Source of the DNA: a virus
Taxonomy: Duplodnaviria; Heunggongvirae; Uroviricota; Caudoviricetes
IMG/VR virus record: IMGVR_UViG_3300039367_000033
Coordinates: 1 to 9,220 of that record
DNA: 9,220 nucleotides
Reading direction: 5' to 3' (one strand)
The translations under genes were made by a program, and so were the position numbers. Under the pieces are notes generated by a model, which saw only the letters and a program-made list of their open reading frames with translations, was not told the DNA's origin and did no database searches. Shown piece by piece: positions 1 through 9,220 of the stretch. Positions within the stretch are counted from its first letter, which is position 1. Every line of letters begins with the position of its first letter.

Positions 1-186
1 CAAATTGGAACTTCTCAATGGCTTAACACCCATCAACAAGAAGCCTTCATATCCCACACTTTTAGAACCCAGTTTTTTAACACTGCTCAATTCATGTGGC
101 AACAGCAAACCTTGTCACGTCCAATTAGCCGGAAGGACTGTGCTCAATTTGTCACAGTTCGCTTTCTTAATTCTGGAGGTCAATGA
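1..186 (+). CDS. 3' end of an upstream gene running in from the left edge (partial, product unknown)
   Basis: Frame 1 is open from nt 1 to a TGA at 184-186 that overlaps the ATG at 186-188 of the ABC ATPase gene (TGATG). A second frame (5..199) is also open, so the frame choice is uncertain. AT-rich like the 5' part of the following gene. Confidence 0.3.
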   Translation, partial: QIGTSQWLNTHQQEAFISHTFRTQFFNTAQFMWQQQTLSRPISRKDCAQFVTVRFLNSGGQ

Positions 187-1094
187 TGACACTACTTGAC
201 ATAAATCATGTGGACTACTGTTACAACGAAGGAACGTCACCTACTATTCATAACATTAGTCTAACTGTCTGTCCGAATTCAACAACTGTCATTATAGGTC
301 CTTCAGGCATTGGCAAGACCACATTATTAAACTTGATCGCCGGTTATCTAAAACCCAGTCAAGGAACTTTAACCATGAACGGCAAATCAATAACAGGGCC
401 ATCTTGGAAGCGCGGCGTTGTTTTTCAAACAATGGCTCTTTATCCTTGGTTAAATGTCCGTGATAACATTTTGTTTGGTCCAAAAATGCGTCATCAATCT
501 TCAGACGATTTTACCATGCTATTAGAAAAAGCTGGATTAACTCATTATGTTAATCGCCCAATTTATACACTCTCAGGTGGTCTGAAACAACGCGTTGCCC
601 TTGTTCGCGCGTTCATCAACCATCCTCCGTTACTCATGTTAGATGAATCGTTTGGAGCTCTAGATAACCATACACGGGCAGAGATGCATACACTATTGTT
701 TGATCTCTGGCGTGCTACTCAAAATGCTATGATTATCATCACTCATGATATTGATGAGGCGCTACGGCTGGCAGAACATCTGGTATTGATGGATCACGGT
801 GAAGTGGTGCAGCAGGGCAATCCGCTGACGATGCTGACTCGTCCGGCGAATGATTTTGTTCGCCAGTTTTTTGGACGTAGTGAACTGGGTGTGCGCCTGC
901 TTTCGTTACGTAGTGTGGCGGATTACGTGCGTCGCGAAGAACGTGCAGAAGGTGAGGCACTGGCAGAAGAGATGACGCTACGCGATGCGCTCTCCCTGTT
1001 TGTCGCGCGGGGATGCGAGGTGCTGCCGGTGATGAACACGCAGGGCCAGCCTTGCGGCACGCTGCATTTTCAGGATCTGCTGGTGGAGGCGTAA
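186..1094 (+). CDS. yehX: ABC transporter ATP-binding protein: C-terminal ~115 aa look like the YehX/OpuCA-type tail ([11 protein letters not shown] plus a CBS-like region); N-terminal nucleotide-binding domain is AT-rich and looks TauB/SsuB-like
   Basis: ORF 183..1094. GGAGG at 175-179 sits 6 nt before the ATG at 186, so 186 is preferred over 183. Walker [11 protein letters not shown]-loop VVFQ, signature LSGGLKQR, Walker [14 protein letters not shown]-loop ITHD. Followed 4 nt later by a permease gene. Symbol applies to the 3' portion only; the gene appears mosaic. Confidence 0.8.
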
Positions 1095-1098
1095 ACGT

Positions 1099-1830
1099 AT
1101 GAAGATGTTGCGCGATCCGCTGTTCTGGCTCATTGCTCTGTTTGTGGCACTGATTTTCTGGCTGCCTTACAGCCAGCCGCTGTTTGCTGCCTTGTTCCCA
1201 CAACTGCCACGCCCCGTTTATCAGCAAGAGAGTTTTGCAGCTCTGGCACTGGCTCATTTCTGGCTGGTGGGAATTTCGAGTTTGTTTGCGGTGATCATTG
1301 GTACTGGTGCCGGAATTGCTGTCACTCGCCCTTGGGGCGCGGAATTTCGTCCACTGGTGGAAACTATTGCCGCCGTTGGACAGACTTTTCCGCCCGTTGC
1401 AGTGCTGGCGATTGCCGTTCCGGTGATCGGCTTTGGCCTGCAACCGGCGATTATCGCCTTGATCCTTTACGGTGTGCTACCCGTCCTGCAGGCGACACTT
1501 GCCGGGCTGGGATCGATTGATGCCAGCGTGACCGAAGTTGCCAAAGGCATGGGAATGAGTCGTGGTCAGCGACTGCGTAAGGTCGAGCTACCGCTGGCGG
1601 CTCCGGTGATTCTGGCGGGCGTGCGAACTTCGGTGATTATCAACATTGGTACGGCGACGATCGCCTCAACGGTAGGGGCCAGCACGCTGGGTACGCCCAT
1701 CATCATCGGGCTTAGCGGATTTAATACCGCGTATGTGATCCAGGGGGCGTTACTGGTGGCACTGGCGGCGATCATCGCAGACCGCCTGTTTGAAAGGCTG
1801 GTGCAGGCGTTCAGCCAGCACGCAAAATAA
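1099..1830 (+). CDS. yehW: ABC transporter permease of the osmoprotectant (OsmF-YehYXW) system
   Basis: 243-aa strongly hydrophobic protein with multiple predicted membrane spans, directly downstream of the ATPase gene; GGAGG upstream of the ATG; GC-rich enterobacterial codon usage. Confidence 0.88.
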
Positions 1831-1918
1831 AGGTATAACCTGCGAGCATGACGCCACCAATTCCGCCTAACGCCATAAACAGGAACAGGGCGATGACTCC
1901 AATTTTAGCTATGCGCAT
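1811..1918 (-). CDS. yohO: small membrane protein, 35 aa ([35 protein letters not shown]), YohO-like
   Basis: ATG at 1916-1918 (minus) preceded by AAGGAG with 7-nt spacing; single hydrophobic helix; TGA at 1811-1813; overlaps the yehW 3' end by 20 nt on the opposite strand. Not in the ORF track because it is short. Name is from memory of the K-12 locus. Confidence 0.55.
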
Positions 1919-1977
1919 AATGCACTCCTTATGTTAACGAAAGGATTGTACAGTAAAGCGCATTTGTTAACGAATCA

Positions 1978-2664
1978 TTAAATGCCGAGTGGGAAAATAT
2001 CATGGCCTTGTTCCTGCCAACTGGTGAGTTGCTGCTGTTGGGCGGAGGTTCGATTTTCACCGCACCACACCAGCAATGTACGGCCTTCGAACAGTTCAGG
2101 GCGTAGTTGATTGAGCGAGTGGGCGAGGACATCAATGCGCCATCCTTGTTGACTGGCAATCCAGCCCTCCAGCCACAGACGGGTGGTATCCTGAATATTC
2201 CAGCCAACCACCAGCGCATCTTTACCCTGTTTTTTACGTGCCGAAGCCAGACAAATGGCAATGTAGTTGATCAGTACGCCGTCGAGGATCGCCAGCAGCG
2301 CCTGGAGAGTCGGTTGTTGGCACTGAAGCCGTCGGCGCAGTGGAATGAACAGATGTGTGGTGAGTGTCTGGGCGGGGTAATCCTGACCGCGCTCTTTGAT
2401 CCACGTTCGCAGGCTATGCAGATTGCCGCTTTGCAGGTAAGTCAGTAATGTTTCTTGCTGATCGCGCCAGCCGTTCTGCACATCAACATTTTCATTACTG
2501 AGCAGCATTTTTACTTTGCTGACCTGCACGCCATTGTCGATCCAGCGTTTGATCTCGCGGATCCGGTCAATATCGGCATCGTTGAACAGCCGATGACCGC
2601 CGTCTGTCCGTTGCGGTTTCAGCAATCCGTAACGCCTCTGCCACGCGCGTAACGTGACAGGGAT
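1978..2664 (-). pseudogene. mlrA: mlrA (yehV) MerR-family regulator of csgD/curli, 5'-truncated by prophage insertion
   Basis: Minus-strand frame encodes ...PVTLRAWQRRYGLLKPQRTDGGHRLFNDADIDRIREIKRWIDNGVQ... through to TAA at 1978-1980. Upstream of about nt 2664 the frame reads SVSLPLI and hits a stop at 2695-2697 with no ATG or GTG; the only start in frame is an internal TTG at 2623-2625. From memory, intact MlrA begins MALYTIGEVALLCDINPVTLRAW, so the first HTH helix is missing. Confidence 0.8.
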
Positions 2665-2699
2665 TAAGGGTAAACTAACTGATTTTACAAGTTTTTATT

Positions 2700-3986
2700 T
2701 TACCCCACTTTCTTATGGGGCATACATGGGACACTTTCAGATAGTCTTTTGTTAAGGAGTTCTATCTGTTCGTGATTGTTGTCTTTCATCCATGCTCCGT
2801 AAACATTGAATACCATTTGTGCGTTTGTGTGGCCCATCTGGCTTGCGATAAAACTAGGATTAGCTCCAGCGGCAAGTGACCAGCATGCATAAGTATGCCT
2901 GGATTGGTACGATTTTCTGTGTCTCAGACCTGCGCGTTTTAAGATACTTGTCCATGACTCCCTGATGGAGTCAACCTTATAGTGCGGTCCGGAAAACTGC
3001 CGCTGTTTTATTACCTGAGGACTAAAAACAAAAGTGCATTTATGCACAGTACTTCTCCCATATTCCCTCTGCTTTACCTCTACAGAATGTTGCTTTCCAA
3101 GCATGGTCATTTCCGCCTGACTTTTAAGAGCATCAATAGCTGGTTGAACCAGATGAATTGTCCTTCCGGTGCCAGCATCGGTTTTTGGTGGAGTGAATTC
3201 GCCAAGTTTTGTATAATTCCTACGGATGGTTATAGTCCTTGCTTTAAGATCTATATCTTCCCATGCCAGCGATACCAGCTCCCCGTGACGAATACCCGTG
3301 TATACAGCGAGAATCCACAGGTTTTTTGTTTGTTGATGACGGCAAGCCTCAATAAAACGAATAAATTCGTCACGGGTGAGAGGATCTGGTTTTACCTTGG
3401 ACTTTTTTAAGGGTGCCAGACCGTTAAATGGGTTTCCTGAGGTATAACCATTATCTGTTGCAAATTGAAACATTCCAGCTATGGTTGTCATATAGTAGTT
3501 TACTGTGACCACTGAGCGCCCTTTTATGGAAGAAATCTTTCCATTAGAAAGCTTTTGGTAACCGGTCAACAAATCTCTCCTTGCGAAAAGTAAATCCTCT
3601 TTTGTTATGGATGAAACCAGTTTTTTCTCACCCAACATAGGCAACATGTTTTTAATTACTGACTGGTAACGATTAAGTGCATTCGCACAAATCTCAATTT
3701 TCTTAAGGTCCAACCATTTTTCCGAAAGTGCCTTAACGGTTATCTCTCTTTTTCCCAGACCAAAGTGTTTCAGGTTAGGGGAATTAGGGAACTGTGTGGC
3801 GTAGTCGAAACTCCCCATTCTGATTGCAAAACAAACGGAAGTGCGAAGTTCACCTGCGATCTTCCGGTTTTTGGCGGTGTCAGGAACACCGAGGTTTTCT
3901 CTGACACGTTTGCCATTATAGTGAAACCATATACGGAGTGATCCTCCATGGTTTTCAACGCCTGTCGGGTATGATACGTTACTCAT
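2700..3986 (-). CDS. int: phage integrase, tyrosine recombinase family (428 aa)
   Basis: ORF 2700..3986 with ATG at 3984-3986 and GGGAGG upstream. C-terminal catalytic-type motifs (LRHRKSYQSRHTY ... MGHTNAQMVFNVYGAW with a candidate active-site Tyr). Position next to the chromosome junction is typical of int next to attL. Confidence 0.93.
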   Translation of the reverse strand: MSNVSYPTGVENHGGSLRIWFHYNGKRVRENLGVPDTAKNRKIAGELRTSVCFAIRMGSFDYATQFPNSPNLKHFGLGKREITVKALSEKWLDLKKIEICANALNRYQSVIKNMLPMLGEKKLVSSITKEDLLFARRDLLTGYQKLSNGKISSIKGRSVVTVNYYMTTIAGMFQFATDNGYTSGNPFNGLAPLKKSKVKPDPLTRDEFIRFIEACRHQQTKNLWILAVYTGIRHGELVSLAWEDIDLKARTITIRRNYTKLGEFTPPKTDAGTGRTIHLVQPAIDALKSQAEMTMLGKQHSVEVKQREYGRSTVHKCTFVFSPQVIKQRQFSGPHYKVDSIRESWTSILKRAGLRHRKSYQSRHTYACWSLAAGANPSFIASQMGHTNAQMVFNVYGAWMKDNNHEQIELLNKRLSESVPCMPHKKVG

Positions 3987-4019
3987 TAAACCTCCCAGAC
4001 GTCCAGGAGCATTAACAGG

Positions 4020-4274
4020 TTAACCGGAACTTGCATTTTTGGCACCTGGTTGTTTCTGGTTTTCGATCCATCGCATAATTTCTTCGATGTTGTACAGGCA
4101 TTCACTGTAATGCCCAGGATCACCTTCTACAGCGTAATGGCGGTATTCTTTTCCCTGCATCCATGACTTTCTCCTGGCCCGCTCGATGGTGCCGGGCTTT
4201 AGCCCTGTTGATGCAATAAGGACTCTCTCCGTACACCATTTGCTGGGGGTTATCTGATAGATGATTGTCTGCAT
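4020..4274 (-). CDS. excisionase-like / small DNA-binding protein (84 aa)
   Basis: Immediately upstream of int in the same orientation (33-nt gap); ATG at 4272-4274 with GAGG 5 nt upstream; small basic protein with a W...R...G..EY pattern loosely resembling lambda Xis. Function inferred mostly from position. Confidence 0.55.
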   Translation of the reverse strand: MQTIIYQITPSKWCTERVLIASTGLKPGTIERARRKSWMQGKEYRHYAVEGDPGHYSECLYNIEEIMRWIENQKQPGAKNASSG

Positions 4275-4292
4275 GCCAACCTCATAAAACTT

Positions 4293-4427
4293 TCATCCAC
4301 GGCAGTGGCACCACACGTCAAACATTCGCTTCACAACTTCACGACAGTAGAAACCGTCACCATCTTGCGTCAGGTCATAGCGATTGCCGTAACGCTGGTG
4401 GACCCATCGTTCAAATGCTTTATTCAT
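4293..4427 (-). CDS. hypothetical small protein, 44 aa (MNKAFERWVHQRYGNRYDLTQDGDGFYCREVVKRMFDVWCHCRG)
   Basis: Not in the ORF track. ATG at 4425-4427 preceded by AAGGAAG, 3 nt after the TAA of the upstream gene; fills the gap between the 80-aa gene and the xis-like gene; ends TGA at 4293-4295. Confidence 0.45.
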   Translation of the reverse strand: MNKAFERWVHQRYGNRYDLTQDGDGFYCREVVKRMFDVWCHCRG

Positions 4428-4430
4428 TCT

Positions 4431-4673
4431 TTACTTCCTTTTTATGGCTCGTAATTTTTTCAGGTGCTTTTCCTGCTCAGTATCCGCGAGAATTTTGCGG
4501 TACTCCTGGTGGTCAATATGTTCGAACAGGCTGTTGAACTCAGTGATGCGTACCCGCCCGGAGCGCCCGTCCATCCTCCGAAAGAATACCGAGTGAACAG
4601 TACTGCGAGTAATTTTTACCGGGTAGCCAGCACTATCGGTGTATATCTGCCCGCGTTGAATCAAAGCGAACAT
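4431..4673 (-). CDS. hypothetical phage protein (80 aa)
   Basis: ORF 4431..4709 begins with TTG; the internal ATG at 4671-4673 (MFALIQRG...) is preferred because the TTG extension would overlap the coupled 27-aa ORF upstream. Basic C-terminus (KHLKKLRAIKRK). Confidence 0.6.
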   Translation of the reverse strand: MFALIQRGQIYTDSAGYPVKITRSTVHSVFFRRMDGRSGRVRITEFNSLFEHIDHQEYRKILADTEQEKHLKKLRAIKRK

Positions 4674-4677
4674 GTGG

Positions 4678-4761
4678 TTATCCCCATCGACAAATCGAGA
4701 ACACAACAAACGCTGCTGCGAATACCACCCCCAGAGTTACGATTGCATCAGGCCAGCTCAT
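4678..4761 (-). CDS. small hydrophobic peptide, 27 aa (MSWPDAIVTLGVVFAAAFVVFSICRWG), probable single-pass membrane peptide
   Basis: Not in the ORF track. ATG at 4759-4761 overlaps the TGA of the DUF551-like gene (ATGA); strong AGGAGG 7 nt upstream; TAA at 4678-4680 is 4 nt before the ATG of the next gene. Confidence 0.4.
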   Translation of the reverse strand: MSWPDAIVTLGVVFAAAFVVFSICRWG

Positions 4762-5303
4762 TGATTCACCTCCTGCGGCGGTTCTGGCAGCGGCATCCAG
4801 TGGGTTACCTCCTTGAGATACAGGTCTTCGCCATCACCGTCATCCCAAGTGGGCTTGCCATCATTAAACCAGTCGCCATATACGCCGACCTGAGTGTTGG
4901 GGATGTTTGGTGGGTAGTTGTTTTTAAAGTCAGCAGCTAACACATAGCATTGTCGCTCTCCCATTTCTGGCATTCGCTCACTACAGCTTATCCAACTCTC
5001 CGGAGTTACCGGAGAGTTGCCAGCCTCATACGCCACACGCATCCAGTGCATAAGCGTTTCAGTGCTCACACAGCCGCAATCAACATCAATTTTGCCGTGC
5101 TGCTGTTCCAGCCATTGCTCAAAAGTTAACTTGTAAGTTTGGCTTACAGGTTCTGCACTATCAGCTTCGCGCCGCTTCTGTAGCTCTGCTGCCATCGCTC
5201 TCACGACTTCAACTGGTGCCCTTGCCGCAAACTCTATGTTGGTGATCAGCTCATTAAGATATTGCTCGCCTGGATACTGTTTCTTATCGGTTATAGTGGT
5301 CAT
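4758..5303 (-). CDS. DUF551-domain phage protein (181 aa)
   Basis: C-terminal region WISCSERMPEMGERQCYVL...VTHWMPLPEPP matches the DUF551 pattern as I recall it (W-I-S-x-x-D/E-R-L-P ... T-H-W-M-P-L-P-E-P-P). ATG at 5301-5303 overlaps the upstream TGA (ATGA); GAAGGA upstream. Confidence 0.75.
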   Translation of the reverse strand: MTTITDKKQYPGEQYLNELITNIEFAARAPVEVVRAMAAELQKRREADSAEPVSQTYKLTFEQWLEQQHGKIDVDCGCVSTETLMHWMRVAYEAGNSPVTPESWISCSERMPEMGERQCYVLAADFKNNYPPNIPNTQVGVYGDWFNDGKPTWDDGDGEDLYLKEVTHWMPLPEPPQEVNQ

Positions 5304-5815
5304 GCTGCGTTTCCTTCTTTCTTATTAACAATTACACCGTCATATATTTCATTAAGGTGTCCTCTTAGCTCCATGCGCCTTAATGCAGATAACATGTAAT
5401 CGCATTCAACCTGCTTATTCCCAGTAAATGGCTTATCGTCAGAATTACCCCAACAGCAATTACCCCTGGGCCATCCATGTACTTTCCGTACTCTTCCGTT
5501 AACAACGTGAAGTAATCCCCAGCCGGGAGGTAAATCCTCAACTGAAATAATTTCCGGCTCACTAATAAAGAATCGCCAGTCGCCCATGCCAAGTGAGGGA
5601 TTTTTACGGAAACGCTTTTTTCTATCTGCCAACAAGTCAGCACGAGAACACTTCGCCTCTATCAGGCATGATGCTGAATTTCTGAATCCCATAGCATCTG
5701 GCTGTTCTCCGGTACTGGTTACAGCAACAAAGCGGTCATGAAAGCAAACCTTGAACCCGTTGCGCTTAAGGAACTTGTACGCAATCTGACAGAGTTCGTG
5801 GTGTGTTAACGCCAT
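5300..5815 (-). CDS. putative PD-(D/E)xK nuclease-like phage protein (171 aa)
   Basis: ATG at 5813-5815 preceded by AAGGAGAG (junction motif copy 1). Motif GEQPDAMGF...CLIEAKCSRADLL fits the PD...E-x-K signature of restriction-endonuclease-like / VRR-NUC folds. The TTG-extended ORF 5300..5875 is rejected. Family assignment is by eye. Confidence 0.7.
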   Translation of the reverse strand: MALTHHELCQIAYKFLKRNGFKVCFHDRFVAVTSTGEQPDAMGFRNSASCLIEAKCSRADLLADRKKRFRKNPSLGMGDWRFFISEPEIISVEDLPPGWGLLHVVNGRVRKVHGWPRGNCCWGNSDDKPFTGNKQVECDYMLSALRRMELRGHLNEIYDGVIVNKKEGNAA

Positions 5816-5816
5816 A

Positions 5817-6257
5817 TCACTCTCCTTTCCCATGAAGCATGGCGGCGCGGCAGGCGTTCCATATTTCGGCAGCAATATCGCGCTCGCTATCGGTTAATTT
5901 GTACGTGGAAACATAGCCAGAGAGCATTTCTACGTTTTCCGGAGTTGCTTCTTCCGGCACTACCGGCGCTGGCAAGGCAGCGTGATAGTAGAGTGGCATA
6001 GTTTTGTACAGTGGTTCGCCAGGACTTCCGTCAACCTGATTCCATTCTTCAACCCAGGCATCAACAACCGCTTTGCTGGTTGATACATGTTCTTCTGAAT
6101 CTACATTTTGTCCTGATATACAGAACATAACTGCTTCTGCTTCCAGCGATGCCAGTGCGATTTCATAAGCCCGACGCTCAATATTGTCTCGGACGTCCAG
6201 GCTGCCTATACGCTCTTTGATTTCTTTAATCAGTTCTTTGTCGGTTAAAGTGGTCAT
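5817..6257 (-). CDS. hypothetical phage protein (146 aa, acidic, ends KGE)
   Basis: ATG at 6255-6257 with GAGGA upstream, overlapping the TGA of the upstream gene (ATGA). N-terminus MTTLTDK resembles that of the DUF551-like protein (MTTITDK). Confidence 0.75.
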   Translation of the reverse strand: MTTLTDKELIKEIKERIGSLDVRDNIERRAYEIALASLEAEAVMFCISGQNVDSEEHVSTSKAVVDAWVEEWNQVDGSPGEPLYKTMPLYYHAALPAPVVPEEATPENVEMLSGYVSTYKLTDSERDIAAEIWNACRAAMLHGKGE

Positions 6258-6463
6258 TTGTTAATCCTCAAAACTTTATGCCCGGGCGCAAAAGCACGCG
6301 TTTTGTCTTTGCTTATTCGCCAGCCATCCTTGCGCGCCTCTTTTGCACAACCAGACCATGACGTACCGATATACTCACCGAAGTCTGGCGACTTATATTT
6401 GCCATCTGTACACTGGAGGCAGTCACAATAGAGATGCATGGTGTAACTTGCGGCAATAGCCAT
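6254..6463 (-). CDS. small Cys-rich protein (69 aa; CDCLQC...C...H, possible zinc-binding)
   Basis: ATG at 6461-6463 preceded by the exact junction motif AAAGGAGAGTGATATGGC (copy 2). The TTG-extended ORF 6254..6535 is rejected. Confidence 0.7.
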   Translation of the reverse strand: MAIAASYTMHLYCDCLQCTDGKYKSPDFGEYIGTSWSGCAKEARKDGWRISKDKTRAFAPGHKVLRINK

Positions 6464-6464
6464 A

Positions 6465-6659
6465 TCACTCTCCTTTAGTGCGCAAATGGTTTTTCCAGCG
6501 GTTTTGCGCCGCGCTGGGCTTTTTGCAAAAACCACAATCCATCATCCCGTAATATTTCATCAACCCCATCCGTCGGTTGCTGAGTCTCACCCACTGCCAG
6601 ACGCCAGGAGCGTTTCTACGAACTAACAGAATCTTTGCTTTACGGTTGTTGGTTGCCAT
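6465..6659 (-). CDS. small basic protein (64 aa, ends KGE)
   Basis: ATG at 6657-6659 preceded by the exact junction motif (copy 3); TGA at 6465-6467. Confidence 0.7.
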   Translation of the reverse strand: MATNNRKAKILLVRRNAPGVWQWVRLSNRRMGLMKYYGMMDCGFCKKPSAAQNRWKNHLRTKGE

Positions 6660-6660
6660 A

Positions 6661-7260
6661 TCACTCTCCTTTGATGCGAATGCCAGCGACGCGTAATGCG
6701 TGTTCTAGGTCAATCAGGTAAAGCCAACTGCCATTTTCTTTAGGTATCATGACATGTCGCTCATCTGCATTTATCGGGTGTCCATATCGAAGGTCGTAGC
6801 GAGTCGGTAATTGAACTTCCCGCGCTTCCAGTTCAGCAATACGCTTGCACCCATCAGAGATAACTCCCTCGTAATACTCGCGCTGCTCGTTGAGTTTTGA
6901 TTTTGCTGCTTCAAGCTCAACGAGCAGCTTCCCAACCGTAAGCGCAATATCCTCGTTCTCCTGGTCGCGGCGTTTGATGTATTGCTGGTTTCTTTCCTGT
7001 TCATCCAGCAGTGCCAGCACGGTAGCCGGGTTAGCCTCTGCTATGAATTCAGCGTTTGCATAAGCCTGAGCATCTGATTCAATCAGGCAGTTAACATGAC
7101 ATTCCGCAATCACGCCACCGGGTTCTCCTTTCCATTTTTGACAAACAAAAACTCCTGTTAAATTGCCGTGCTGGTTAACAGATGTATGCCCTACGATGTA
7201 GCTTCCTTTAGTTGCTTTCTCTGCCTTTTCACGCAGTGCCTGATAGTTAATCTCGCTCAC
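6661..7260 (-). CDS. Ea22-like early phage protein, paralog 1 (199 aa)
   Basis: GTG start at 7258-7260 overlapping the upstream TGA (GTGA), GGAGGA upstream. N-terminal MSEINYQALREKAEKAT... and ANAEFIAEANPATVLALLDE resemble ead/Ea22-like proteins as I recall them; central region has coiled-coil character; ends KGE. Confidence 0.75.
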   Translation of the reverse strand: MSEINYQALREKAEKATKGSYIVGHTSVNQHGNLTGVFVCQKWKGEPGGVIAECHVNCLIESDAQAYANAEFIAEANPATVLALLDEQERNQQYIKRRDQENEDIALTVGKLLVELEAAKSKLNEQREYYEGVISDGCKRIAELEAREVQLPTRYDLRYGHPINADERHVMIPKENGSWLYLIDLEHALRVAGIRIKGE

Positions 7261-7481
7261 TCTTCATCCTCCAAGTCGGCAACGGCGTCCATCACATCAG
7301 AACCGCGAATAACCTCAAAAGCACGGCAGGCCATTTGAAATACCAGTTGCTCTTGCGGGTGAGGAGACTCCCAATATTTGAAGCCTGGGCGATGCGTGTA
7401 CCCCATCATTGAATAAAAATCACCAGCAAGCTTAATCGCGGCATCGACAAGCTCTCTGTTAGTCATTCTTTTTCCGCTCAC
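7257..7481 (-). CDS. hypothetical small acidic protein (74 aa; 69 aa if the internal ATG at 7464-7466 is used)
   Basis: GTG at 7479-7481 overlaps the upstream TGA (GTGA), with AAGGAGG 6 nt upstream; same junction architecture as at 8702-8720. Confidence 0.65.
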   Translation of the reverse strand: MSGKRMTNRELVDAAIKLAGDFYSMMGYTHRPGFKYWESPHPQEQLVFQMACRAFEVIRGSDVMDAVADLEDEE

Positions 7482-8065
7482 TGGTTGCCTCCTTTGCGAA
7501 GCTGGGCGGCTAACTCATCACATATGTGCGTCAAAGAACAAAGTTTGATTGATGGATGTTCGCGCATCATCTCTACCCCCTGCGCCCGCACTTCAGACAG
7601 GAAAGCATCGGTGGCTGGCATATTTCCTGTTGCCTTCATTGCTTCCAAAATAACCAGAACGCCATCTCGCCCAATCTCCTCGCAGATAACCTCGGTGCTG
7701 TCGCCAACAACATCGCAAAATGCCTGAACTGCTTTACGAGCCAGCGCATTCTCCGCCACCAGCGCCGCGAGATTAGTCTCAAGCTCTGCAATTCGACACA
7801 TAGCATCAATATTTGTGTCCTCCAGGCGCTTAATTTCACCAAGCAGCTCCAGTGCAACCTTTGGGTTGAACGCGGCAACATGACGAGCGTTGTTCTCTGC
7901 ATTTTTCTGTCCATCAAAGCCGGTCCATTTGATAACGTCTTCACATCGTTCATCACCGGGCGTGTGCACCGCATAAGTACCAGTATCCGTCGAAATAAAT
8001 GCGACCCATTCGTCTGGTGTTGCCTTTTCTGCCGCCTCACGCAGTACCTGATAGTCAATTGTCAT
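7478..8065 (-). CDS. Ea22-like early phage protein, paralog 2 (195 aa; 198 aa if the ATG at 8072-8074 is used)
   Basis: N-terminus MTIDYQVLREAAEKAT and NARHVAAFNPKVALELLGE align with paralog 1. ATG at 8063-8065 overlaps the upstream TGA (ATGA), with AAGGA 8 nt upstream. Confidence 0.75.
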   Translation of the reverse strand: MTIDYQVLREAAEKATPDEWVAFISTDTGTYAVHTPGDERCEDVIKWTGFDGQKNAENNARHVAAFNPKVALELLGEIKRLEDTNIDAMCRIAELETNLAALVAENALARKAVQAFCDVVGDSTEVICEEIGRDGVLVILEAMKATGNMPATDAFLSEVRAQGVEMMREHPSIKLCSLTHICDELAAQLRKGGNQ

Positions 8066-8706
8066 TCTCGCCATCCTTCACAGTTGTAATCACTACAGCC
8101 TTCAAAATCATATGGGCTGTACTGCCAGGTTATTTTTCCGCAATGCGGACAATTCCAACGCACCTTCCCGCTTCGCGACTTCTTTCTTCTGTTCTGCTCT
8201 TTCAACCAGTCAGGCATGACCAAACCTGCGCCCTGAACCATTGTTCTGCGGTTAAAGTTATTGATATTGAACGTCCGGCGCTTTGCTGCATCAGCAATGG
8301 AAAATGGCAACCAAACTATTCCTGGTTCGTTTTTGTTGGCGACGCTAAAGATGGTCGCTTTACTGAAGTCATCTGTTGGCAATCCACCGTGTTGAAGCCA
8401 GTAAACATCATTGCCGTTCCAGCTACCTTTTTTGTAGGCCACATACGCAGTGCAATCTGACTCAATCAGGCTTTCTGTAGGGATGTACTGGCAATCAACG
8501 TGCCACACTGCCATTGCATCCACGCTATCCGCGCAAACAGGCTGATCGATATCTCGCCCACAATTCCAGGCTTTTTGGGCTTCTTCCAGCGTGTAAACAT
8601 GAGCGCGATCGATATCAGAACTGTAACCATTGCCGTTATGGCAATGGAATGAGGCGTTATTACCCACAGTTTCACGCAAGCACATCATGTAAAAACGGTT
8701 ACTCAC
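8062..8706 (-). CDS. hypothetical Cys/His-rich phage protein with C-terminal zinc-ribbon-like motif (214 aa)
   Basis: GTG at 8704-8706 overlaps the upstream TGA (GTGA), AAGGAGG 6 nt upstream; C-terminal CPHC-(x16)-CSDYNC; the longer TTG-initiated ORF 8062..8742 is rejected. No family recognised. Confidence 0.7.
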   Translation of the reverse strand: MSNRFYMMCLRETVGNNASFHCHNGNGYSSDIDRAHVYTLEEAQKAWNCGRDIDQPVCADSVDAMAVWHVDCQYIPTESLIESDCTAYVAYKKGSWNGNDVYWLQHGGLPTDDFSKATIFSVANKNEPGIVWLPFSIADAAKRRTFNINNFNRRTMVQGAGLVMPDWLKEQNRRKKSRSGKVRWNCPHCGKITWQYSPYDFEGCSDYNCEGWRE

Positions 8707-8942
8707 TGGATGCCTCCTTGGTGGAGTTGCGCTGCGATGCACGAAAAAAAAGACTCCCGTGTATGACTGTTAAGAGCTGGTGCGAACGCCTCGTTAAGAA
8801 CGGCGGCATCACAGCCGTCATCAATATAGAGCGCAATTTTTTTCTCCAGGCGCGCTTTGGCTTCCTGCAACTGCATACCCCGGCACGCACGCGGGATATA
8901 ATCAGCAATTTGAGCGATAGCTTTTTCGTTCTGTTTAAACAT
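8703..8942 (-). CDS. hypothetical phage protein (79 aa)
   Basis: ATG at 8940-8942 with GAGGTG upstream; overlaps the upstream gene end by 8 nt (ATGTTTAA). Confidence 0.65.
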   Translation of the reverse strand: MFKQNEKAIAQIADYIPRACRGMQLQEAKARLEKKIALYIDDGCDAAVLNEAFAPALNSHTRESFFSCIAAQLHQGGIQ

Positions 8943-9138
8943 GCTTCACCTCGATAGGCTTGATGGTGTCTAACAGCAGTCGGCGGCGCGTATTTTCTGC
9001 AAAATGGCGGCGTCCAGTTTCTTTGTGGTAAAACTCGTTTTTGCCAACGACCCACATCCGCTTTGTCTGGTGCAGTTTTTTTACCTGCGGACCGTCTCGG
9101 GTGATAACAATTCCTGTATGAGTTTTTATCACGCTCAT
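8935..9138 (-). CDS. hypothetical basic phage protein (67 aa)
   Basis: ATG at 9136-9138 overlaps a TGA that closes an open frame entering from the right window edge (ATGA); no clear SD, so expression probably depends on coupling. Confidence 0.6.
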   Translation of the reverse strand: MSVIKTHTGIVITRDGPQVKKLHQTKRMWVVGKNEFYHKETGRRHFAENTRRRLLLDTIKPIEVKHV

Positions 9139-9220
9139 TTTTTATTCTTCGGTGCTTTCGGCATTACTGCCCAGTGAGTGATATTGACGTTTTCAAGGTC
9201 CCCGACCTGAAATGTCCACA
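9135..9220 (-). CDS. 3' end of a further phage gene entering from the right edge (partial)
   Basis: A minus-strand frame is open from the window edge to TGA at 9135-9137 (...VGDLENVNITHWAVMPKAPKNKK*). A second frame is open to a TAA at 9164-9166, so the frame choice is uncertain. Confidence 0.3.
   Translation of the reverse strand, partial: WTFQVGDLENVNITHWAVMPKAPKNKK

Follow-up and report, generated by a model that had tools for sequence, protein, structure and literature searches.

Does an open reading frame (ORF) of only 27 codons, wedged between two larger genes of a lambdoid prophage, encode a protein and, if so, of what kind? The question is raised by a locus on the minus strand, at positions 4678 to 4761, of a 9,220-nucleotide (nt) stretch of DNA (IMG/VR record IMGVR_UViG_3300039367_000033, positions 1 to 9,220, Caudoviricetes; hereafter the window). 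The gene immediately upstream encodes a protein with a C-terminal DUF551 domain and the gene immediately downstream a DUF4222 protein. An initial annotation, made from the sequence alone, had proposed that the frame is an overlooked gene for a hydrophobic peptide, coupled to the DUF551 gene in a prophage early operon, and had pointed to Kil-like division inhibitors and small toxins as possible parallels. Comparison with relatives indicates that the 27-codon frame is a genuine protein-coding gene under purifying selection. The best explanation of the data, to which we assign a probability of about 0.55, is that its product would be a 27-residue single-pass microprotein of the inner membrane, acting as a helix-packing modulator in early infection or induction.

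The gene and its translation signals are placed as follows:

4678..4761, minus strand: microprotein gene, 27 codons plus TAA, product MSWPDAIVTLGVVFAAAFVVFSICRWG
4774-4768, minus strand: Shine-Dalgarno sequence AGGAGGT, 6 nt 5' of the ATG
4758..4761, minus strand: ATGA start/stop overlap of the peptide gene with the upstream gene, whose TGA is at 4760-4758

The frame runs from an ATG at 4761-4759 to a TAA at 4680-4678. Its Shine-Dalgarno sequence lies within the last codons (Q-E-V) of the upstream gene, the last five of which contain the ribosome-binding site of the microprotein, and between the TAA and the start codon of the DUF4222 gene (ATG at 4673) lie just four bases (CCAC, 4677-4674). 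The peptide sequence, start and stop, the strong AGGAGG, the start codon overlapping the upstream stop and the 4-nt distance to the next gene are thus all as first described. An ATGA in which the start overlaps the stop of a gene on the same strand is a termination-reinitiation signal and favours translational coupling; the strong Shine-Dalgarno sequence of its own suggests that translation of the peptide may not depend on the upstream gene. By itself, a frame of 27 codons is weak evidence for a gene, since the surrounding 1.5 kb (4000-5500) contains 27 ORFs of at least 20 amino acids (aa). This one is raised above chance by its conservation among relatives.

A tblastn search with the peptide against 50,697 phage records returned full-length matches of 52-63% identity in differing locations. 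The homologue in 933W (MTWPEAFANVGTVMAVVLVVYSICRWR) lies just upstream of sokW/hokW, and that in ArgO145 (MTWPEAFTTVGIAMAVALVVYSICRWG) adjoins a toxin-antitoxin pair on the other strand. A further homologue (MTWPEAFTTVGVVMAVAFAVYSVCRWG) is carried by Av-05, a virulent phage of the Vequintavirinae, the one in YYZ-2008 (MNWPEAFTAVGVAIAVAFILYSLFRWG) shares the synteny of the window, and the copy in vB_EcoS-613R10 is in the nin region. Scanning IMG/VR together with a single genome for each species brought the collection to 283 copies with 45 peptide variants, drawn from lambdoid and Shiga-toxin (Stx) prophages, from non-mobilizable plasmids of about 100 kb and from virulent rV5-like phages. All but two of the variants (43 of 45) are 27 aa long; one has 25 aa through an in-frame deletion of two codons and one has 29 aa, so that the only length changes are in-frame.

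Across 57 distinct nucleotide versions, the entropy at the three codon positions is 0.25, 0.20 and 0.64, the third being about three times the first two. The pooled ratio of non-synonymous to synonymous polymorphism (pN/pS) is 0.28 in the frame of the ORF and 1.26 and 1.53 in the shifted frames. Six representatives of the different lineages, which differ at 20-33% of their nucleotides and are near saturation at synonymous sites, have kept frame, length, start and stop; their pairwise ratios of non-synonymous to synonymous substitution (dN/dS) are 0.08-0.61, with dS up to 1.85. Between ArgO145 and Av-05, for example, 12 of the 17 differences fall at third positions. When the window is compared with YYZ-2008, divergence is greatest in the ORF itself, with 66.7% nucleotide identity against 82-84% for the flanking genes, and the ORF is nevertheless intact in both. 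An 18-nt junction motif was also searched for in IMG/VR regardless of the sequence 3' of it, and an intact 27-aa ORF followed in 202 of 203 cases, a set that overlaps loci first found through their peptide match and is not fully unbiased. The check put forward in the initial annotation, whether related prophages tolerate frameshifts or stops in the frame, clearly favours a gene.

These data bear on the simplest alternative, in which there is no functional gene and the ORF has been kept through recent spread and hitch-hiking with its neighbours. Such a history would suit the facts that the majority of IMG/VR copies match one of two alleles exactly or almost exactly and that few hosts are involved, namely Escherichia and Shigella together with some plasmids of Salmonella and one of Klebsiella. 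It fits poorly with the integrity of the frame, its start, stop and length across lineages so far apart in nucleotide sequence, with length changes confined to whole codons and with neighbours that differ from copy to copy, and is very improbable. An RNA element is likewise unlikely, because the window contains no match to an Rfam family at or above its gathering score and the local folding energy equals that of shuffled sequence (z=0.14).

The surroundings of the gene vary far more than the gene. The ATGA overlap is present in each of the 189 copies of the first pass. In four unrelated phages, 933W, ArgO145, Av-05 and vB_EcoS-613R10, the annotated upstream coding sequence (CDS) ends at base 1504 of the locus and the peptide match begins at 1501. 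Two unrelated junction sequences, CAGGAGGTGAATCAATGA and GTGGAGGATATTTTACGATGA, occur among relatives; GGAGG is kept in both, rarely as a one-base variant. The upstream proteins belong to several classes, and an identical peptide allele can stand behind different ones that share only the tail ...QEVNQ*. No DUF551 match was obtained in the overlapped upstream genes of 933W, ArgO145, Av-05 and vB_EcoS-613R10, and only the first 16 DUF551 positions remain in the upstream gene of the commonest relative. The coupling to the DUF551 gene proposed initially therefore holds for the window and many relatives; DUF551 as a constant partner does not, given four upstream genes that lack it and one allele found behind different genes.

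The same junctions bear on the idea that a -1 frameshift at the overlap extends the upstream Ea22/DUF551-type protein by the peptide, which would then be its C-terminal membrane anchor and not an independent protein. The peptide frame is open for at least 14 codons upstream of its ATG in the window, some gene calls extend the peptide upstream, and a 27-aa variant falls into a 90% cluster together with DUF551 proteins of 121 aa. A gene fusion suggested by that mixed cluster was rejected, the 121-aa members ending in ...QEVNQ without the peptide, which makes the cluster a linkage artefact. There is no slippery heptamer, and GGAGG and ATGA are all that the two types of junction have in common; the ATG and the Shine-Dalgarno sequence, unneeded at a frameshift site, are kept in every copy, and the upstream extensions differ between contexts. 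Of all the alternatives this is the least probable.

Downstream, similarity among copies ends at the stop codon, as upstream it begins at the Shine-Dalgarno sequence. At least 12 unrelated downstream contexts were found, including the DUF4222 gene, hok/sok, several G+C-rich hairpins with T-runs and other genes; the DUF4222 gene is the downstream neighbour in the window and not a constant partner. Since the genes on both sides vary, the peptide gene behaves as a self-contained module, and the alignments indicate that the unit moved by recombination is exactly the segment from Shine-Dalgarno sequence to stop codon. In many Stx and lambdoid phages the gene lies directly upstream of hok/sok on the same strand. 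About 40 of the 189 copies, roughly a fifth, share the downstream sequence TAAAAACGGTTTGCGGGAAAAGG..., which is the hok/sok-adjoining type; such loci include 933W (locus 1501-1950), O157:H7 strain 86-24 (2135-2601) and PP818812.1 (2501-2951).

The variety of downstream contexts also touches the possibility that only the act of translation matters, with ribosomes handed from the DUF551 gene to the DUF4222 gene across a functionless peptide. The tight fit of the ORF in the window, where it overlaps the upstream gene by 4 nt and ends 4 nt short of the next, would suit such a spacer, and its last sense codons, TGG GGA, could act as a weak ribosome-binding site for the DUF4222 gene. It is the amino-acid sequence that is under purifying selection, however, and most other contexts offer no downstream gene to couple: a terminator hairpin, hok/sok or a gene on the opposite strand stands there instead, and the C-terminal R-W-G is nevertheless kept. 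A pure spacer is accordingly a very doubtful proposition.

The peptide consists of an acidic N-terminus (MSWPD), an uncharged hydrophobic core of 19 residues (A6-C24) and a basic C-terminal cap (R25-W26-G27). The core in the window has a mean Kyte-Doolittle hydropathy of 2.63 and a hydrophobic moment of 0.06; across four variants the values are 2.1-2.6 and 0.06-0.11, and no residue of the core is charged. It is flanked by D/E5 on one side and R25 on the other, with W3 and W26 at opposite ends. About 19 uncharged hydrophobic residues between interface or charged flanks are what is expected of a single-pass membrane microprotein. The residues M1, W3, P4, A6, G11, A15, A17, S22, R25 and W26 are invariant or nearly so. 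On a helix, P4, G11, A15 and S22 fall on one face, at 280-320 degrees, and A6, A13, A17 and C24 on the opposite one. Such stripes of small residues are a usual mark of helices that pack tightly against each other. A lipobox around Cys24 was considered and dropped: the N-terminus is acidic and not basic, position -1 is Ile, and the Cys is replaced by Phe in the YYZ-2008 lineage.

The following sequence of events can be proposed on the basis of these features. The peptide would be translated from its own strong ribosome-binding site, aided by ribosomes terminating on the upstream gene. It would then insert in an N-out/C-in orientation, with MSWPD exposed to the periplasm and R25-W26-G27 facing the cytoplasm, as D/E5 and R25 at the two ends and the positive-inside rule suggest. 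In the least certain step, the face formed by G11, A(S)15 and S(A)22 would pack against a host or phage inner-membrane protein, or against the peptide itself. The role would be to modulate a membrane protein in early infection or induction, rather than to form a free-standing pore.

Small proteins of the MgtR, KdpF, AcrZ, MgtS and CydX type have 25-50 residues and one uncharged transmembrane helix, and pack on a larger membrane protein via small-residue motifs. The hydrophobicity and moment of the peptide are similar to those of MgtR and KdpF, a comparison that serves as a lead only. There is no significant sequence similarity to any of the five; moreover, the peptide gene is phage-borne and mobile, whereas theirs are chromosomal and linked to the operon of their target. 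A broader frame of reference is provided by the Entero67K survey, which describes 67,297 clusters of intergenic ORFs of 15-70 codons under purifying selection, mostly hydrophobic and potentially transmembrane (PMC11188072). About 13% of these start within 10 nt of an upstream stop, and about a third of that group overlap it (PMC11188072). The peptide fits the description of this class of small ORFs (smORFs) exactly and stands out by its wide spread across phage types. It is thus a further member of a well-populated kind, the small membrane proteins of phages and enterobacteria.

The main rival to a packing modulator is a membrane-damaging toxin, of a type I-like or mini-holin kind, that would depolarise or permeabilise the inner membrane and thereby bring about growth arrest or host takeover. 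The peptide is short and very hydrophobic, and many short hydrophobic peptides are toxic when overproduced. Because a lysogen keeps these operons silent, toxicity would be tolerable; roughly one copy in five immediately precedes hok/sok, and the stripe of A6, A13, A17 and C24 could allow self-assembly into a ring. In being a small hydrophobic membrane peptide, often prophage-borne and in many copies placed beside hok/sok, it does resemble the type I toxins Hok/Gef, TisB, Ibs and DinQ. It differs from them in that no homology, antisense RNA or independent promoter was found, and in having a helix without charged residues. No Pfam match ties it to Hok/Gef or other toxin families, and no antisense-RNA family of Rfam reaches threshold in the window, so that neither of the two marks of a type I toxin-antitoxin system was found. 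The gene is without a promoter of its own or the long 5' leader typical of type I toxin genes, and in each of the 189 copies its start is fused to the end of the gene before it; its translation would be linked to that gene, whereas theirs is blocked by folding of the messenger RNA. The core has no polar or charged residue, and its moment of 0.06-0.11 compares with 0.32 for TisB, again as a lead only. Nor is the gene part of a lysis cassette with endolysin and spanins: its observed contexts are all early or accessory regions, whether int-xis proximal, in the nin region or hok/sok-adjoining. Toxicity on overexpression is possible; a toxin as the natural role of the peptide is unlikely, if less so than hitch-hiking, a frameshift-added anchor or a pure spacer.

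The second parallel named in the initial annotation was Kil, and the peptide might be a Kil- or DicB-like division inhibitor that blocks the FtsZ ring and causes filamentation. It shares small size and a place in an early prophage operon with lambda Kil, Rac KilR and Qin DicB, all of which act on the host, and it might affect a membrane-bound division protein. These proteins are soluble and unrelated in sequence, whereas the peptide is nearly all transmembrane segment; lambda Kil and DicB are soluble cytoplasmic proteins. No family is reached in Pfam at E<=0.1, and none above cut-off in NCBIfam. Copies in the nin region, on large plasmids and in rV5-like phages show that the gene is tied neither to gam-kil-cIII nor to kil/dicB neighbourhoods in general. 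A division inhibitor is therefore highly improbable. As far as the sequences can tell, no result obtained here supports a Kil-like or a small-toxin role, and neither is favoured. DicB is also described as protecting against phage by acting on inner-membrane proteins (PMC6832061).

A more specific version of the packing model can be considered tentatively, although the odds are against it: the peptide may be a phage plug-in that binds one particular host inner-membrane protein via the G11/A15/S22 face. Candidate targets would be a transporter used for phage DNA entry, leading to superinfection exclusion as with DicB via ManYZ, or the protease complex FtsH/HflKC. Binding to the latter would tilt the choice between lysis and lysogeny, which would agree with the reported pro-lysogenic role of Ea22, encoded nearby. 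If true, such an activity would explain why the gene is retained by temperate lambdoid phages, by large plasmid prophages and by virulent rV5-like phages.

Several observations weigh against the preferred reading, that of an inner-membrane microprotein acting by helix packing. One antisense frame, which shares the wobble positions of the ORF, gives a pN/pS of 0.31. As this mimics the 0.28 of the sense frame, pN/pS alone was rejected as proof of the strand; the coding strand is fixed by the conserved start, Shine-Dalgarno sequence and stop and by the finding that this antisense frame contains no ORF of at least 20 aa within the window. What supports helix packing is a conservation pattern in a family whose members are few and closely related. 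Since the genes on both sides vary, genomic context gives no clue to a target. Finally, text matches in part of the supplementary files of a ribosome-profiling (Ribo-seq) study of strain Sakai and of the Entero67K survey of Enterobacteriaceae smORFs did not include the peptide; the Ribo-seq negative is weakened because early prophage genes are repressed in uninduced lysogens.

The gene is widespread and has been overlooked by curated annotation. Among RefSeq records, the peptide ORF is unannotated in all seven inspected. A gap of 84-87 nt without annotation is found at the same place in a RefSeq E. coli chromosome, in PhiR5_1 and in YYZ-2008. The ORF is unannotated in every annotated relative examined, namely RefSeq chromosomes, one plasmid, PhiR5_1, YYZ-2008, 933W, ArgO145, Av-05 and vB_EcoS-613R10. 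To this extent the statement that it is missed by gene callers stands; it needs correction for NCBI, where one variant is deposited as a 27-aa 'bacteriophage protein' or 'hypothetical protein' and the allele of the window appears as a 40-aa 'hypothetical protein', extended upstream, on 427 contigs. Family databases hold little: the peptide has no match in Pfam (E<=0.1) or PADLOC, and PHROGs gives only hits at E=0.019 and E=0.1. Nothing exceeds the cut-off in NCBIfam, in which one variant reaches KdpF at E=0.024 and 14.7 bits against a cut-off of 26.85, probably an effect of composition. A profile search of the PDB returned nothing at E<=10. A phmmer search with a 31-aa version against 1.84 billion representative proteins gave eight matches, all of them close relatives or mis-extended calls, with no distant homologues and no domain fusions, and a protein homologue search with a 41-aa query, to which 14 out-of-frame upstream codons had been added, found only extended calls of the same peptide. 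Literature searches on the peptide sequence, DUF551, DUF4222 and the exo-xis region yielded no description of the peptide.

By blastn with 101 nt, a copy is present in at least 1012 of 5426 complete E. coli genomes (at least 19%), at 1360 places, 150 of them on plasmids. A tblastn search of plasmids gave 181 records, of which 174 are non-mobilizable (Escherichia 155, Salmonella 25, Klebsiella 1); among the matches listed, nearly all plasmids measure 86-111 kb. One plasmid copy lies about 2.5 kb from a homologue of DNA polymerase III theta and from two ead/Ea22-like genes, a combination that fits a plasmid prophage. The Shiga-toxin phages 933W, VT1-Sakai and VT2-Sakai carry the gene, and no copy was found in CPS-53, the cryptic prophage of E. 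coli K-12 whose yfdS is a DUF551 gene.

Carriers among species-representative genomes are confined to Escherichia and Shigella, save for three suspect contigs of 369-1780 bp labelled Acinetobacter idrijaensis, Segatella copri (a metagenome-assembled genome) and Xanthomonas pisi; these carry the peptide gene in sequence resembling E. coli phages and probably stem from contamination or mis-binning. In the Segatella copy one nucleotide is missing immediately 3' of the ATG. The record PP818812.1, 'Actinobacillus phage vB_Apl-pPE4', labelled as a phage of Actinobacillus pleuropneumoniae, contains Ead/Ea22, the peptide ORF and Hok/Gef in an order of the E. coli lambdoid type; it probably does not widen the host range, and its host label may deserve a second look. 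The gene belongs to the accessory pool of Escherichia, Shigella and Salmonella phages.

In the window, the peptide gene is accompanied by the following genes:

4758..5303, minus strand: upstream gene of 181 aa with a C-terminal DUF551 domain, an Ea22-like mosaic protein (Pfam DUF551, E=3.1e-20)
4431..4673, minus strand: downstream DUF4222 gene of 80 aa (Pfam, E=1e-14), annotated in relatives as a CDS of 243 nt
4293-4427, minus strand: gene of 44 aa between the DUF4222 gene and the excisionase gene (phrog_3871, E=6e-31), annotated in RefSeq relatives
2700-3986, minus strand: integrase gene, adjoining the 5'-less mlrA (yehV), region 1978-2700

The first part of the window is host DNA, with genes for an ABC-transporter ATPase and a permease and an mlrA that lacks its 5' end; the lambdoid prophage follows, and its genes are all on the minus strand. 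In reading order these are PHROG families of unknown function, two Ead/Ea22 genes, further genes of unknown function and the DUF551 gene, then the peptide gene, the DUF4222 gene, the 44-aa gene, an excisionase gene (DUF1233 family) and the integrase gene. The 44-aa gene is annotated and has a PHROG of its own and the adjoining 27-aa gene has neither, which points to a length cut-off at work.

The peptide gene would be one cistron of a leftward early operon comprising the Ead/Ea22 genes, the DUF551 gene, the peptide gene, DUF4222, xis and int. Co-transcription is suggested because the genes share one strand with no promoter- or terminator-like site between them: no promoter-like site was found on either strand in 3900-6000, and no promoter- or terminator-like site in 4000-5800. 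The int-proximal, leftward position agrees with the early-operon placement of the initial annotation. The neighbourhood is that of the exo-xis or ea-region genes of lambda and Stx phages (ea22, ea8.5, orf60a, orf61, orf63, orf73). There is no transmembrane peptide among the exo-xis proteins that have been described, and the exo-xis literature examined does not mention any membrane peptide. The Ea22 variant V2 has a DUF551 C-terminal domain (PMC10834534), and the gene upstream of the peptide in the window is of the same Ea22-type mosaic make-up.

Several other features of this region were observed. Directly upstream of the DUF551 gene, an ORF of 191 aa (5300-5875, minus strand) matches phrog_9263 (E=8e-120, unknown function) and has no Pfam match; its stretch ...PDAMGF...LIEAKCS... 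resembles a PD-(D/E)xK nuclease motif. The segment 5300-5875 is uncovered in the best phage and E. coli matches (76% of the query covered), and is therefore a mosaic insertion relative to the closest relatives. The two Ead/Ea22-like genes are separate members of the same operon on the minus strand (6661-7260, E=4e-40; 7478-8074, E=9e-20). Short genes without a known function, several in number, crowd the space around and between the two, overlapping by 4 nt. On the plus strand, an antisense ORF of 158 aa (4464-4940) spans the DUF4222, peptide and DUF551 genes. It was rejected as a gene, its frame having a pN/pS of 2.06 over the peptide segment and stops in 40 of 57 relatives, and is regarded as a by-product of the sense genes.

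At the other end of the operon, the longest ORF of mlrA in the window is 215 aa with a TTG start, and its match to the MerR helix-turn-helix profile begins at position 26 of 69. Since the integrase gene adjoins this 5'-less mlrA, and mlrA is also found directly beside the integrase gene in a related E. coli genome, the prophage appears to be inserted into mlrA. We take this to be the known yehV site of Stx1-type prophages; insertion there would presumably inactivate mlrA, a curli regulator.

At least 19% of complete E. coli genomes thus carry a gene that has no entry in Pfam, NCBIfam or PHROGs, and the case exemplifies the small proteins of phage genomes that stay hidden behind length thresholds. 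Annotating it would fill a recurrent 'intergenic' gap in the maps of Stx prophages. That an 84-nt module equipped with its own ribosome-binding site recurs downstream of a wide variety of genes, in phages of three very different lifestyles, argues for a self-sufficient and generally useful activity. The target of the peptide could reveal another route by which phages manipulate the inner membrane of their host.

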